A stretch of DNA of 32,000 nt from Candidatus Thorarchaeota archaeon (GTDB lineage Archaea; Asgardarchaeota; Heimdallarchaeia; Hodarchaeales; Hodarchaeaceae): NCBI GenBank assembly GCA_048882505.1, contig JBHLRO010000013.1, positions 60,001-92,000 on the forward strand, written 5' to 3'. This document shows positions 5,672 to 28,963 of the stretch, in pieces; position 1 is the first letter of the stretch; each line of letters starts with the position of its first letter. The translations under genes and the position numbers were made by a program. The notes beneath the pieces were generated by a model. That model made no database searches. It was not told where the DNA came from and saw nothing but the letters and a program-made list of their open reading frames with translations.

Positions 5672-7360
5672 GTGAGTAGTCGCCATACTATTGTCATTAT
5701 GATTCCGACTATCTTTAGCTGGGTGTTAGCGTCTTTATTGCTCTTAGTGTATCCCTTTGACATTCTGGAATATGTTGAAACATTACCTACGAATCCTCTG
5801 GCTGGTTTAGGCTTGTTTTTGCTTGGAGGGATTCTTGTTCTGGCCGTTGCTTCCCTTTTTCTAACCGGAGACGTATTAGATAAGCATCCTGAGTATTTGA
5901 GACAAATTACAACAATTGGACTCGTTGGATGTTCCACTTCAGTGGTGTTGCTTGTACTCTTGGTTGAATACGGGCTATTCATACTAATTTCACTCGTGGG
6001 ATTAGCTGTGTTTTTTGGAATAACGATAACAAGCGCTGGCACGTTATTTGCAGGGCTTATCCCTCTTCAAAAACGAGGAAGTATCTATTCTCTTGGAATA
6101 TTTGTATTTATTTTAATTTCTTTGGTGAGTATCCTCTTAGGTGGACTTATATCGTCTCGTTTCGTTAGTGGCCTTCTTACTATGTCTTGGGTTAGTATTC
6201 TTCCTTTACTTGGCATCTTGGGAATCGGATTGTCGGTGATATTCTGGTTATTTTCACAAGATCTAGAGAAGCCTTGGATAAATGACAGATGGCCCACCCA
6301 TATTCGGAAAATCGTTGGAAGAAGATCTGTTAAAGCTTACCTCCTTACTCACGTTTTCATTTACCTCATGCTTGGAATTAGCATTGCAAGCTTTGCACGT
6401 ATCGGGGAAATATCATTTGATACTTCATGGGTCATTACTATCCCATCTTTTGATGTGTTTGAACTTCCTAAAGACAAAGTGTTCTGGTTTGTGGTTCTCC
6501 TAGGAGATTTGATATTTATTCTGTTCGCAGGTAGACTTTCTGACAGGATTGGTCGAAAGTCCCTTGTTGTAATTGCTCTGTACGGCATTGTATTTGCATC
6601 TTTGATATTTGGTCTCGAACGAACCCCGGGAAGTTTCTTGGTTGCTGCGTTCCTAACTGGTGGTTCATTCGCGTTGCTTCACCCTACTTTAGATTCGTGT
6701 ATTTGGGCCGATCTATCCCCCCGAGATGGCCTTGGCAGGTATTTTGCCTTGGGATTTATTTCATTAGCTATAGGTTTAGGCATCGGAACTGCAATAGGAC
6801 ATTGGATGCTCCAACCTACCCTTGATAACATAGGATTCATTACCTATATTCTTACTATTTTGGCTATTATGGGTGCTTTTCCCCTTTTTTGGGTAGCGGA
6901 CAGTTTTGAACCTTTAGAATTCACATTACTCATTGTTATAGAGGAGGGGGGACTTAATATCTTTGATTATTCCTTTGGAAGAGAAATAGATGTTGAATTG
7001 ACCCTTCTATCAGGAGCACTAACCGCCGTATCAAGTTTTTTTTCTGAAACTCTAAAAGAAAAAGGGATTTTAAATCTGGTAAGACATGGAAGTCATTTCA
7101 TCCTAACCGATCGGGATGCTGAAACAGGACTCTCAGCAGCCGTGTTTAGTAATAAGCTGGATCCGGAACTTCACTCCTCCCTAGGTAAATTTCTACGAAG
7201 ATTTAGTAAGGACTACGGTACAGTCATAAAATCATGGAACGGAGCTCGTTCAAAATTCGATGGAGCAGCAGAGCTCGCAGAGGAATTTTTTGGTCATCTT
7301 TCCCCCTCACGTGATCTCTCCAATACAAAAAAACCCCAGAACATGGTTTCCGCGTTATAG
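5672..7360 (+). CDS. MFS transporter (12 TM) fused to C-terminal longin-like domain, paralogue B
   Basis: Motif A RLSDRIGRKSL. Colinear with 883-2490 (FDILE, PWxNDxxPT, FIYLMLG, GDL, HP, WxDLSPxDxxGRY). Soluble tail from ~6914 (LEFTLLIVIEEGGLNIFDY...LLSGALTAVSSFF...LVRHGSHFIL...VFSNK...WNGARSKF...AEEFF). GTG start. Confidence 0.85.
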   Translation: MSSRHTIVIMIPTIFSWVLASLLLLVYPFDILEYVETLPTNPLAGLGLFLLGGILVLAVASLFLTGDVLDKHPEYLRQITTIGLVGCSTSVVLLVLLVEYGLFILISLVGLAVFFGITITSAGTLFAGLIPLQKRGSIYSLGIFVFILISLVSILLGGLISSRFVSGLLTMSWVSILPLLGILGIGLSVIFWLFSQDLEKPWINDRWPTHIRKIVGRRSVKAYLLTHVFIYLMLGISIASFARIGEISFDTSWVITIPSFDVFELPKDKVFWFVVLLGDLIFILFAGRLSDRIGRKSLVVIALYGIVFASLIFGLERTPGSFLVAAFLTGGSFALLHPTLDSCIWADLSPRDGLGRYFALGFISLAIGLGIGTAIGHWMLQPTLDNIGFITYILTILAIMGAFPLFWVADSFEPLEFTLLIVIEEGGLNIFDYSFGREIDVELTLLSGALTAVSSFFSETLKEKGILNLVRHGSHFILTDRDAETGLSAAVFSNKLDPELHSSLGKFLRRFSKDYGTVIKSWNGARSKFDGAAELAEEFFGHLSPSRDLSNTKKPQNMVSAL

Positions 7361-25114: not shown

Positions 25115-26476
25115 ATGGTAGATATCTCAAGTACTGACTCCCAATCAGATCAATCTAAAGAACCACGAGATCTACGCGAGCGTTTATCAATTTACTCTCT
25201 GAGCGTGGGATGGGCTGCGGGAAGGTCCTCGATTTTTGTTTATCTGTCGTATTTCGGAGTTGTTCTGGGGGCTTCACCACTTGAACAGTCCATTCTAACC
25301 TCCGTGCGAAACTTAGGGGCAAACATGTTCCAATCAGTTTGGGGATGGCTCGCAGACCTTAAAGGTCGAAGGTTGGTTTTGGTAATTGGTTTTACAACAC
25401 TTGCGCTTTCCACATTACTTCTACCTTTCGTTAACAATCCCTTTGAATTAGTTCTTGTGTCCCTAGTTCTTACATCAATCGGGTTCGCTGTAATCCCTGC
25501 GTGGAATGCATTTCTCGGAGACTATTCTTCTGAAAAGACACGAGCTTCATTTGTGGGAAAAATAAATTCCTTGGGAACAATAACCAGTGTTGTATTAATC
25601 CTTTCAGTAGGAGTTCTTATGGATCTCACTCCCTTCCCCTTTCCCCGAGAGGCCATTCAATATGCATCCAGTAGACCTGCTTTTGTTATTCCATTCCTCA
25701 TAGGAGGCTTATTATTTGTCGTAAGTTTGGGTACCTCCTTTGTTCTGGTTGAAAAATACGATAAACGCCTGTCAAAGGTACCTTTTCCCGAAGAGGTTCG
25801 TTTATCCATGAATGAATTGATCCAAAGAAATCCCCCATTCCGACGTCTTTTACCCATTGATGCCATTTTTAGATTTGCTATGAGTACGGCGTGGCCTATC
25901 TTCCCCTTTGTTACCTTAAGGGTTGCAACTTCATGGTTGACTGTAGCCATCTTATGGGTTGTTTTTAATCTTCCTCGCGGTATTGGACAGGCTTGGGGAG
26001 GGCAGCTAGCAGATCAGTTGGGCAAAAAACCTGTTATAATTGCTTCACGAATTGCTTACACAATCGTACCAATTGGATATGCACTTGGGCTTCTAACTGG
26101 AGACGTTTTATTTCTATTACTAGTAAACATACCTGGAGGAATGGCATTTGGGGCCGAGGACACCGCAATTGCCACTTACTCCCTGGACTGCTCCACAACG
26201 GAGACAAAAGCTCGATATTATTCAATTCTCCTAACTTTCGAAGGAATAGCTGCATTTTCAGGGGCCATTTTCTCAGGCCTTGTAATGGATATTTGGTTAC
26301 GGCTTGTTGGAATCGACTATTCTAGCACAAATTTCAATATAATATTGATTTCTATGCTGATGTTTATCTCTATACTCCGATTCTTGACTGCTATTCTTCA
26401 CGGCCTGATACATGCTAATCCCTTGGATTTTGAGCTGGAACAAGCCGTCCATAGAAGAAGGAAGTATGAACCGTGA
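25115..26476 (+). CDS. MFS transporter (no fused domain)
   Basis: Motif A in both halves (LADLKGRRLVL, LADQLGKKPVI); 12 TMs; GGTGA RBS; ends shortly after the last TM. Confidence 0.92.
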   Translation: MVDISSTDSQSDQSKEPRDLRERLSIYSLSVGWAAGRSSIFVYLSYFGVVLGASPLEQSILTSVRNLGANMFQSVWGWLADLKGRRLVLVIGFTTLALSTLLLPFVNNPFELVLVSLVLTSIGFAVIPAWNAFLGDYSSEKTRASFVGKINSLGTITSVVLILSVGVLMDLTPFPFPREAIQYASSRPAFVIPFLIGGLLFVVSLGTSFVLVEKYDKRLSKVPFPEEVRLSMNELIQRNPPFRRLLPIDAIFRFAMSTAWPIFPFVTLRVATSWLTVAILWVVFNLPRGIGQAWGGQLADQLGKKPVIIASRIAYTIVPIGYALGLLTGDVLFLLLVNIPGGMAFGAEDTAIATYSLDCSTTETKARYYSILLTFEGIAAFSGAIFSGLVMDIWLRLVGIDYSSTNFNIILISMLMFISILRFLTAILHGLIHANPLDFELEQAVHRRRKYEP

Positions 26477-26768
26477 CAATTTAGAACGCTTTTAGATCCG
26501 AGACATCATCTTTAAAACCTTAATAATCCCTCCTCTGTCTTTTATCCTATCATGAAACCAATGGAAATCCGCTGCAATGTGTGCCCAAGCATAGTAAACA
26601 AACAAGAATCCCAAGACTTTTTTCCAGATTTCTAAACCTTAGATATTTGTAACTCATGTTATTTCCAAGGACCGAAACAACGATTTATGGTAATTCCTAC
26701 ATAACATGACGGATTATCAGTAATGTCGGAAGGAGACAGGTCAAAGCGTTCTCAAGGTTTGATTACTG

Positions 26769-27383
26769 ATGGGTATACTTGCCAAGATTTTTGCAAAGAG
26801 TCGAAGATCTAAGCTGACAATTGGGATTTTGGGTGCCCCAAATGCAGGAAAAACAACTCTTGCAAATCGCATATCGTCTGAGTGTGGAGACGGAACCCCA
26901 TTGGGGGAAGTGTCTCCCATACCACATGAAACCAGAGACTGTGTTGCAATGGAGCATTGCTCCATTACGGATCAGCATGGTTCCTTAGATCTTACTATTG
27001 TAGACACTCCTGGTATCACTACTTCCATAGATTATAGAGAGTTCCAAATATATGGTCTCAGCAAAGATCAGAGTATTAATCGCGCTAAAGAGGCAACTCG
27101 AGGTGTAATAAAAGCAATTCAGTCTTTAGATCGTATGGATGCGGCCATCGTCGTTGTAGATTCTGCTCGTGAACCGTTCGATCAGGTGAATTGGACTGTT
27201 ATAGGAAATCTAGAGGCACGTAATATTCCCCTTATCGTTGCTGCCAATAAGACGGATCTCGCCAAATCAAATCCAGATTTGGTGCGAGACGTATTCCAAA
27301 GTGATATTATCCCAATTTCTGCAAAAAAAGGTACAGGGATGAATGAACTTTACACCTCCCTATTAGGGCTTTCGCAAATGTAG
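26769..27383 (+). CDS. oapA: Archaeal Era-like small GTPase, OapA/ArvA type
   Basis: G1 GAPNAGKTTLANRI, SPIPHETR, G3 DTPG, EATRGV, DSAREPFDQVN, G4 NKTD, G5 ISAK; first gene of a three-gene set. Confidence 0.88.
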   Translation: MGILAKIFAKSRRSKLTIGILGAPNAGKTTLANRISSECGDGTPLGEVSPIPHETRDCVAMEHCSITDQHGSLDLTIVDTPGITTSIDYREFQIYGLSKDQSINRAKEATRGVIKAIQSLDRMDAAIVVVDSAREPFDQVNWTVIGNLEARNIPLIVAANKTDLAKSNPDLVRDVFQSDIIPISAKKGTGMNELYTSLLGLSQM

Positions 27384-27384
27384 T

Positions 27385-27708
27385 GTGGTGGGAATCCAAA
27401 TGGATCTTAGAATAGATTTTGTGACGATCAATACAACTAAGAAGATGGATGTCACAGAGAAATGTGATTTTATAATTTCAAAGTTGCAGAATGAGAGAGT
27501 TGTAGTTTTTGAAGGTGGCCTCCAGCCAGAAGAAGAGGCAGAACTAATTCAAGAGGCAATGAAACAGATTGATCACGAGGATTTTATGGGATATAGGATT
27601 TTATCTCCGACGCCTGTCCGAACATCTGGTCTTTTTTCCCGTAAAGATATCCGTATGACTGTGATCGCACCTTCAAACTATCAGAGACTTTCCATTGCGT
27701 TAGTATAG
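27385..27708 (+). CDS. oapB: OapB/ArvB (DUF2073-like) protein
   Basis: VVVFEGGLQPEEEAELIQEAMKQIDHEDFMG and MTVIAPSN; 1 nt after the GTPase stop. ATG 27400 is an alternative start. Confidence 0.8.
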   Translation: MVGIQMDLRIDFVTINTTKKMDVTEKCDFIISKLQNERVVVFEGGLQPEEEAELIQEAMKQIDHEDFMGYRILSPTPVRTSGLFSRKDIRMTVIAPSNYQRLSIALV

Positions 27709-27726
27709 ATTATCGAATGATGTGAA

Positions 27727-28095
27727 ATGTCCAGTAACCAGGATAGCTTGAAGCGCTATAAATGTGCCCAATGTGGTCGGAGTCCCACTTCGGAATGGGA
27801 AATTTTCAAAGGTTGCAAATGTGGACATAGACTTTTCCGAATTGTACCTCGGCCTAAACCGTTATTAATTCCTGGCAGGCCGTATCAGCTTACAAATAAG
27901 CAGGAAGTGCCAGAGTTTTTAACCGTAAAGGAGGAAAGAGAAGGTATCTACGAAATCAATGTTAACAAACTCCTCCAGAATAACGAGGCCCAGCAGACTC
28001 CCTTGGTAGTAGGAACGGAGGGGGTTTTCCTCATAAAAGGGTTGGTACCGAGAAGAAAAAGTGAGACCCAACGAAATACTAACTCACAAGTTTGA
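27727..28095 (+). CDS. oapC: OapC/ArvC zinc-ribbon protein (DUF2072-like)
   Basis: KCAQCGR...EIFKGCKCGHRLFR and GIYEINVNKLL; third gene of the set. Confidence 0.78.
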   Translation: MSSNQDSLKRYKCAQCGRSPTSEWEIFKGCKCGHRLFRIVPRPKPLLIPGRPYQLTNKQEVPEFLTVKEEREGIYEINVNKLLQNNEAQQTPLVVGTEGVFLIKGLVPRRKSETQRNTNSQV

Positions 28096-28963
28096 TTTCC
28101 CGCGTCACTTCATTCAGGTCGCAAATCCGTAATTCATGAAGATACCGTAGATGTTTTCTGGCAATAATGGGTGTAATTCCCAGTTCCGTGGCAAGTGTGT
28201 CAAGAGCTAGTGTTTTAACTTTTTTTCTCTCAAAATAATCAATGATGTACAAAACGATTTTCCCTACCTCACTCTCCTGCAGAATGGTTCTGAGATGGCG
28301 ACTTCGTACCAAATCGCTTTTGCTCGGGTCAGCCTGTTCAAGTTGCCCTGCGCGTACTTCGGCCCGTTTAACTTCAGCCTGCATCTGGCTTAGTATTTCT
28401 CGATGTCCTGCCTCTATCTCTCTTATCTCCCCTTCTGTTTGTTGCAGAAGATCTTGAAGTTTCGAAATTTGCATAAGGTAGGTCTGCTGCTCCTCCTTGG
28501 CACCATGTATTGCCTTAATATACTCATTAAGCTGTATGAGCTGGTTTTCAATGATCTGATTTTTATCGTTAATGATTGTCTGAGCGGTCTTATACTCCTT
28601 CTGCAGAAGTTGCAGTTCCTGTTCTCTTTCGGTCAAAATATTCCTAGTGGCTATTAATTGGGCTTTTAATTCTGAAACTTGAGCTGAGTATTCTTGAATT
28701 TGGGAATCGATTGCGTCTTGTTTCAGTATCAGTTGTGCTTCTAATGTACCAATAGTTTCTTTTTGATTCTGGACTTTGAGGGCTAGTTTAGAAGAATCAT
28801 TGTCGATTTCTCTTATGATCTGTCTTTTTTCATCAGTGGGTCCTTTGGCTAGAGCATTAATATGTTTAGATTTCATTTCTTTAGGAACAAGCTGGCTGTC
28901 TTCACCCCCTTCTTCGCTAAGAGATGCTTCTTCCGATGAAGTCGGATCTTCGCTATCAGCCAT
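28079..28963 (-). CDS. Coiled-coil protein with acidic N-terminus and predicted C-terminal winged-helix domain
   Basis: Ser/Glu-rich first ~25 aa; ~160 aa of Q/E/K/L heptad-like sequence; C-terminal TLALDTLATELGITPIIARKHLRYLHELRICDL is HTH-like. Confidence 0.75.
   Translation of the reverse strand: MADSEDPTSSEEASLSEEGGEDSQLVPKEMKSKHINALAKGPTDEKRQIIREIDNDSSKLALKVQNQKETIGTLEAQLILKQDAIDSQIQEYSAQVSELKAQLIATRNILTEREQELQLLQKEYKTAQTIINDKNQIIENQLIQLNEYIKAIHGAKEEQQTYLMQISKLQDLLQQTEGEIREIEAGHREILSQMQAEVKRAEVRAGQLEQADPSKSDLVRSRHLRTILQESEVGKIVLYIIDYFERKKVKTLALDTLATELGITPIIARKHLRYLHELRICDLNEVTREIKLVS

Follow-up and report, generated by a model that had tools for sequence, protein, structure and literature searches.

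We analysed a 32-kb stretch of DNA from an Asgard archaeon (the window: positions 60001-92000 of contig 13, in an assembly of 4.3 Mb that is 94.6% complete and labelled Candidatus Thorarchaeota archaeon), and found in it what is almost certainly an orthologous and intact arcoABC operon. Three genes lie on the plus strand in the order arcoA (26769..27383), encoding a single-domain small GTPase of 204 amino acids (aa), arcoB (27400..27708), encoding a SepF-like protein of 102 aa when read from the ATG at 27400, and arcoC (27727..28095), encoding a zinc-ribbon protein of 122 aa. The trio was first named OapABC and then ArvABC, HVO_3014, HVO_3013 and HVO_3012 being the A, B and C genes of Haloferax volcanii (Mills et al., 2024, PMC10927574), and it is also known as DipABC (He et al., 2026 preprint, PMC13228585). 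A preliminary description of the window, made from its sequence, had proposed a complete oapABC/arvABC small-GTPase operon, and the three co-directional open reading frames (ORFs), their Pfam matches and their canonical order bear this out. It had also suspected an Asgard host. The nearest copies of ArcoA, at 76-78% identity, belong to Candidatus Hodarchaeota archaeon (WORE3, YT2_065) and Candidatus Heimdallarchaeota archaeon (CP070665.1, CP070760.1), which makes the host a Hodarchaeales-type member of Heimdallarchaeia and the contig Asgard, not euryarchaeal.

The identity of ArcoA was established from its motifs, its relatives and its predicted fold. ArcoA matches MMR_HSR1 (PF01926) at 61.3 bits and carries a full set of GTPase motifs: G1 GAPNAGKT (residues 22-29), G2 Thr55 within PHETR, G3 DTPG (79-82), G4 NKTD (160-163) and G5 SAK (184-186). 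Residues G22, G27, K28, T30, H53-E54-T55, D79-P81-G82, N160-K161-D163 and S184-A185 are invariant in 23 Asgard ArcoA sequences, and a family signature, NRAKEATRGV (104-113), lies in a long helix, with RAKEAT common to all relatives. Identity ranges from 42 to 78% with 22 Asgard orthologues, and from 45 to 51%, over the full length, with the copies of DPANN, Thermoplasmatota, Methanothrix, Archaeoglobi and others. The AlphaFold2 (AF2) model, with a predicted local distance difference test score (pLDDT) of 85, is an ordinary Ras-like or Era-like G domain. Its closest solved structures are Era (7c1o and 3iev; template modelling (TM) score 0.66-0.67) and the MnmE G domain, with Arl3 lower down, while the best sequence-profile matches in the PDB are Der, TrmE and Era; a search of solved structures in the PDB returned no Arv, Arco or Dip entry. 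NCBIfam models for Der, Era, HydF and MnmE all score below threshold (Der at 60 bits against a cut-off of 307). Assignment of the protein as Era was rejected, as it scores 52.7 bits against 237 for TIGR00436 and 38.6 against 116 for NF000908, consists of the G domain only, and has no C-terminal KH domain. Assignment as Arf/Sar1 (PF00025) was also rejected: the match of 22.8 bits covers residues 3-38, that is, the N-terminus and P-loop, with no domain-level stretch. The occurrence of one match per genome, together with linkage to OapB, argues strongly that the protein belongs to the ArcoA/ArvA family.

ArcoB scores 62.5 bits with OapB (PF09846, formerly DUF2073), for which the cut-off is 27, and was aligned with 28 Asgard orthologues. 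The top solved folds for its AF2 model (pLDDT 82) are all SepF structures (7al1, 6sat, 3zig and 8hzt), although these matches are weak (E 4e-3 to 4e-2, TM score 0.43-0.58). A short LF-basic segment, SGLFSRKD (residues 76-83), sits where relatives have an L-F-basic stretch; in Haloferax ArcoB, a membrane-binding helix has been reported at residues 89-97.

In ArcoC, an N-terminal C4 zinc ribbon (C13, C16, C30 and C32) is joined through a variable linker to a C-terminal segment that is conserved, EGIYEINVNKLL...TPLVVGTEGVFLI. DipC is described with the same architecture of zinc ribbon, variable linker and conserved C-terminal segment, and averages ~276 aa in Halobacteria (PMC13228585). The four cysteines, G73, P92 and G99 are conserved across 25 ArcoC homologues, and all 25 aligned Asgard homologues match OapC (PF09845, formerly DUF2072), the best at 2.2e-15. 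A profile built from Asgard sequences, the window's own ArcoC included, retrieves, in a sample of a euryarchaeal phylum, the third gene of 29 of the 30 operons, and finds ArcoC as a single-copy gene in 78 of the 83 genomes of the host class. In-frame TAA codons flagged in the arcoC matches of one family (f7) proved to lie upstream of the start codon, and the genes are intact.

All three ORFs behave as real genes. Ratios of nonsynonymous to synonymous substitution (dN/dS) against the nearest species are 0.04 for arcoA, 0.04 for arcoB and 0.10 for arcoC, indicative of purifying selection and therefore of constraint on each; since the A-B-C order is also the same in every sampled relative of the genus, the trio is beyond chance. 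The start of arcoB required a choice between two codons. The ORF is also open from a GTG at 27385, which gives a protein of 107 aa and gaps of 1 nucleotide (A-B) and 18 nucleotides (B-C), the spacing first described. The ATG at 27400 is the more likely start, because a Shine-Dalgarno-like GGTGGG lies at 27389-27394 and orthologues in the genus begin at the same methionine (M-D/E-L-R/K-I-D-F); the 1-nucleotide gap thus holds for the longest ORFs and becomes 16 nucleotides with the likelier 102-aa protein. The operon promoter is presumed to lie within the 292-bp intergenic region upstream of arcoA (26477..26768, plus strand), as read from the sequence. A scan for sigma-70 promoters and terminators near the operon gave results no better than shuffled sequences, the model being bacterial and not applicable to archaea.

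To place the locus among its relatives, we surveyed the three genes across the phylum. PF09846 was detected in 97 of 400 species representatives; by family within the host class, the counts were 20/21 (f1), 2/2 (f2), 1/1 (f3), 29/31 (f4), 3/3 (f5), 11/12 (f6) and 6/12 (f7). Wherever arcoA and arcoB were both present on a contig they were adjacent (70 of 70 Asgard loci). arcoC directly follows arcoB in the host and the 20 other genomes of its genus that have the locus (21/21) and in the two sister-family genomes (2/2). Contiguous A-B-C is therefore found in 23 of the 24 species representatives searched in the host order, which is every genome that has the locus. The remaining genome, G075 of the host genus, has none of the three genes and also lacks the coiled-coil/winged-helix gene that neighbours the operon, and is likely to reflect an assembly gap. 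Elsewhere arcoC lies 4.5-8 kb upstream on the same strand (family f4) or on other contigs (f7). Full operons were also found in family f14, a lineage labelled Freyarchaeota/Jordarchaeia, which fits the Jordiarchaeia operons of a published survey (bioRxiv 10.64898/2026.07.23.738820). In the euryarchaeal sample, 87 of 101 genomes have exactly one match to the Asgard-built ArcoA profile, with A-B-C synteny at 29 of 30 loci.

Two side observations arose from this survey. At five loci (L061, L063 and L077 of family f11, L068 of f32 and L072 of f6), arcoC lies directly upstream of arcoA on the opposite strand, in a divergent arrangement; surveys seeking A-B-C order only would class such loci as pairs without arcoC. 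At two euryarchaeal loci (L174 and L175, in genomes G477 and G493), the longest ORF containing ArcoA is 461 aa, compared with ~211 aa, representing either an N-terminal fusion or an over-extended ORF call.

The descent of ArcoA was followed in trees built from operon-linked sequences only, so that the rows do not include other GTPase families; the non-Asgard rows were drawn from DPANN, Thermoplasmatota, Methanothrix, Archaeoglobi, Hydrothermarchaeota, Altiarchaeota and a 27-row sample of the euryarchaeal phylum. A single branch separates all Asgard ArcoA sequences from the rest, with support from the Shimodaira-Hasegawa-like approximate likelihood ratio test (SH-aLRT) of 99 in a tree of 122 rows and 99 in a tree of 149 rows. 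In a 72-row tree without long branches, the Asgard branch has ultrafast bootstrap (UFBoot) support of 100 and SH-aLRT support of 98. Support is 100/100 for the genus, and 98/96 for the genus together with its sister family. Whether OapA had been inherited or transferred was a question raised with the first description of the locus, and the pattern is one of vertical inheritance and not of recent transfer from Euryarchaeota. The operon is thus contiguous and vertically inherited throughout the host order; this, an ArcoC at the edge of Pfam detection, a shortened ArcoB and a conserved coiled-coil neighbour (see below) are a modest novelty.

Earlier work has already described the system, its mechanism as now understood and its occurrence in the host class. 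In Haloferax, the arvA knockout forms no vesicles, the arvB knockout 3.1-fold fewer and the arvC knockout 1.65-fold more, and ArvA is enriched in vesicles; ArvA was reported in 8 of 183 Asgard genomes (PMC10927574). All three Dip proteins oscillate from pole to pole, and their deletion leads to minicells and misplaced FtsZ1; DipABC was noted in 'some' Asgard genomes, with dipC sometimes a loner gene (PMC13228585). ArcoC binds to ArcoA and inhibits the polymerisation of FtsZ1, as was also seen in vitro with Archaeoglobus proteins, and the same study places arcoAB across Heimdallarchaeia with arcoC mostly apart, full operons in 8% of genomes, and full operons in Jordiarchaeia (bioRxiv 10.64898/2026.07.23.738820). 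According to both 2026 preprints, the trio in Haloferax oscillates and thereby sets the position of the FtsZ1 ring (PMC13228585; bioRxiv 10.64898/2026.07.23.738820). Two of the statements made in the preliminary description need adjusting in this light. The trio, given there as typical of Euryarchaeota, is not confined to them, as the Asgard ArvA genes (PMC10927574) and the Heimdallarchaeia arcoAB genes (bioRxiv 10.64898/2026.07.23.738820) attest. The link drawn between the GTPase and vesicles stands as a Haloferax phenotype, but the framing is outdated, vesicles being one read-out of an oscillator acting on the FtsZ1 ring.

We consider it reasonably probable that arcoABC in this archaeon works as it does in Haloferax, oscillating in a Min-like manner to determine where the FtsZ ring forms, with effects on vesicles as a second read-out. 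By analogy with H. volcanii, GTP-bound ArcoA would bind the membrane through its N-terminal hydrophobic and basic extension. The SepF-like ArcoB would also be membrane-bound and would displace ArcoA, probably by stimulating GTP hydrolysis, so that the two proteins together would form a Min-like reaction-diffusion oscillator. ArcoC, carried on ArcoA, would block FtsZ polymerisation locally, and the FtsZ ring would assemble where the time-averaged level of ArcoC is lowest. The same GTPase cycle at the membrane would, as a further read-out, affect the release of extracellular vesicles. Membrane binding, oscillation, inhibition of FtsZ and the vesicle effect would in each case carry over from experiments on Haloferax and Archaeoglobus proteins.

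Two features of the host genome bear on such a mechanism. ArcoA starts with MGILAKIFAK, and its extension is hydrophobic and then basic (MGILAKIFAKSRRSK), consistent with an amphipathic membrane-targeting helix as judged from the sequence. A hydrophobic-then-basic extension precedes the P-loop in all 23 aligned Asgard ArcoA sequences, with a net charge of +3 to +7 in most. The genome also encodes a bona fide FtsZ (FtsZ1 or FtsZ2), a protein of 431 aa on contig 15 that scores 374 bits with TIGR00065, against a cut-off of 295, and matches PF00091 and PF12327 (FtsZ_C). As a separate observation, contig 2 carries adjacent genes of 474 and 465 aa (295485-298326, locus L037). The first has no Pfam match, and the second encodes a divergent protein of the tubulin superfamily (PF00091, 60.6 bits; TIGR00065, 28 bits). 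The two may represent an Asgard pair of tubulin-like genes such as has been described in Heimdallarchaeales.

Several observations weigh against a simple transfer of the Haloferax mechanism. In the AF2 model of ArcoA, the N-terminal helix spans residues 4-9 with a pLDDT below 50, and the hydrophobic moment of the N-terminus is not above that of shuffled controls (p = 0.59). ArcoB of the host order (families f1 and f2) lacks ~11 near-C-terminal residues that are kept in all other Asgard families; because these are missing, its Pfam match ends at profile position 88 of 104. ArcoC matches PF09845 at 21 bits, below the cut-off of 23, and over the zinc ribbon only. A six-frame PF09845 search of the whole genome found no better ArcoC candidate elsewhere, and that search also did not list the marginally scoring ArcoC of the window. 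Orthologues in the genus score 18.3-24.3 bits and so straddle the cut-off, which is the one used in the Arco preprint; its figure of 8% for full operons is therefore probably an undercount for the host order, and surveys that rely on Pfam cut-offs probably miss some ArcoC genes in this order, and with them some complete operons.

A further group of such observations concerns the division machinery. A search for SepF (PF04472) found none in families f3 or f6 (0/12), and one weak match among the 21 genomes of the host genus. The same profile matched in 28 of 31 genomes of f4 and in all 12 of f7, with sub-threshold matches only in f2 and f5. Contig 16 of the host genome carries a divergent SepF-like candidate (~6434-6750, minus strand; ~106 aa) that has a basic N-terminus, and absence of SepF from this genome, which was considered, is not claimed in view of it. 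Because the genus has no SepF detectable by Pfam, only this divergent candidate, its division machinery may differ from that of Haloferax. Hodarchaeales also have ESCRT and actin systems, and a role for FtsZ in their division is therefore unproven.

An alternative is that the primary role of the module is vesicle formation. ArcoA would then be a budding GTPase like Arf/Sar1, deforming the membrane and driving the release of extracellular vesicles, and ArcoB and ArcoC would be regulators resembling a guanine nucleotide exchange factor (GEF) and a GTPase-activating protein (GAP), respectively. The phenotypes of the Haloferax arvA, arvB and arvC knockouts and the enrichment of ArvA in vesicles (PMC10927574) are in keeping with such a role, as is the weak Pfam Arf match over residues 3-38 of ArcoA (22.8 bits). 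We nevertheless think it unlikely. The later preprints describe a division-site oscillator whose loss gives minicells and mislocalised FtsZ, and vesicle changes can be secondary to minicells or altered membrane dynamics. In addition, ArcoB is SepF-like and not GEF-like, and the nearest solved GTPases are Der/EngA, Era and MnmE, with Arl3 lower. Gly2 of ArcoA is not conserved in the genus, many orthologues having Ser and starting MSIL, and an Arf-type myristoyl switch is therefore unsupported.

It is also conceivable, but rather improbable, that Hodarchaeales have re-purposed the module to pattern another target, such as membrane protrusions or another cytoskeletal system, with the gene next to the operon as an added component. 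The product of that gene (28079-28963, minus strand) is 294 aa long and combines an acidic N-terminus with a long coiled coil and, at the C-terminus, an IclR/TrmB-like winged helix. The presence of the gene beside the operon in all sampled genomes of the genus and in the two genomes of the sister family would accord with re-purposing, as would the order-specific C-terminal deletion in ArcoB and the lack of Pfam-detectable SepF in the host order. However, this linkage ends at the level of the order, the homologues in family f4 lying elsewhere, and synteny across the genus also takes in unrelated transporter and sugar-nucleotide genes, so that adjacency by itself is weak evidence. A canonical FtsZ is present, moreover, and ArcoA keeps all catalytic and family-conserved residues.

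A related but still less probable proposal is that the Arco module of Hodarchaeales is lineage-specific, being defined by its contiguous operon, shortened ArcoB, absence of a canonical SepF and coiled-coil neighbour. ArcoB could then double as, or replace, the membrane anchor of FtsZ, with the coiled-coil protein as a possible fourth component. The proposed closest relatives of eukaryotes would, if this were true, use a GTPase patterning system that has been re-wired.

Least probable by far is the suggestion in the preliminary description that ArcoA serves as GTPase partner of the longin tails of two major facilitator superfamily (MFS)-longin transporters in the window: its sole support is the shared 32-kb window and the docking of small GTPases by longin domains in general, whereas the MFS gene nearest the operon (25115-26476) has no longin domain in Pfam, the MFS-longin orthologues of four relatives in the genus show no conserved linkage to arcoABC (25 kb away in G065, 55 kb in G059, 1.2 Mb in G067 and on another contig in G071), and ArcoA already has two conserved, co-inherited partners.

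The surroundings of the operon were examined in the host and its relatives. Upstream lie ATP-binding cassette (ABC) and MFS transporter genes, and downstream the coiled-coil/winged-helix, nucleotidyltransferase and phosphomutase-like genes, an arrangement that is syntenic throughout the genus. The coiled-coil/winged-helix gene is convergent on arcoC, overlaps its last 17 bases, and adjoins it in all sampled genus genomes. Of the flanking genes, it is the only one still found close to the operon in the sister family (both genomes, in two arrangements), and its homologues in family f4 are unlinked to the operon. In the ESM Atlas its product falls in an uncharacterised family whose members of known phylum are mostly Asgard (Promethearchaeota). 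This neighbour is at most a candidate member of the module. Association of the operon with a replication origin in the host genome was considered and rejected, since all four orc1/cdc6 genes are on other contigs (one on contig 24, two on contig 2 and one on contig 12; none on contig 13).

With a conserved arcoABC operon as the preferred reading, the finding is largely ordinary, and no new kind of system is shown. It matters mainly as bookkeeping, in that a proposed closest relative of eukaryotes carries a Min-like GTPase oscillator and FtsZ as a vertically inherited, near-core feature. The short and well-conserved proteins (204, 102 and 122 aa) should suit heterologous tests of division-site choice in Asgard archaea.

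Comparison with known systems places the locus as follows. ArcoA shares the fold of its G domain with Era, Der (EngA) and MnmE and with Arf/Arl proteins, but is without a KH or other added domain. The bacterial MinD-MinE-MinC system resembles it by functional analogy only, as the preprints argue: in each, an NTPase is brought to the membrane by an amphipathic targeting sequence and freed from it by an antagonist, and a passenger inhibits FtsZ. There is no kinship in sequence or fold, ArcoA being a TRAFAC GTPase and MinD a ParA-type ATPase, and ArcoB being SepF-like. The arco loci of Heimdallarchaeia and Jordiarchaeia already reported (bioRxiv 10.64898/2026.07.23.738820) belong to the same phylum and system and include a subset with contiguous arcoABC, whereas contiguity is the rule in the host order (23/24), unlike in families f4 and f7. 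Compared with Haloferax ArcoABC, the Asgard locus is not beside orc1/cdc6 or an origin, its ArcoC is short (122 aa), and its ArcoB is without ~11 C-terminal residues. The two nevertheless share the same three families in the same order and with tight spacing, a hydrophobic and basic N-terminal extension on the GTPase, a SepF-like second protein, a third protein in which a variable linker separates a zinc ribbon from a conserved C-terminal segment, and FtsZ in the genome.

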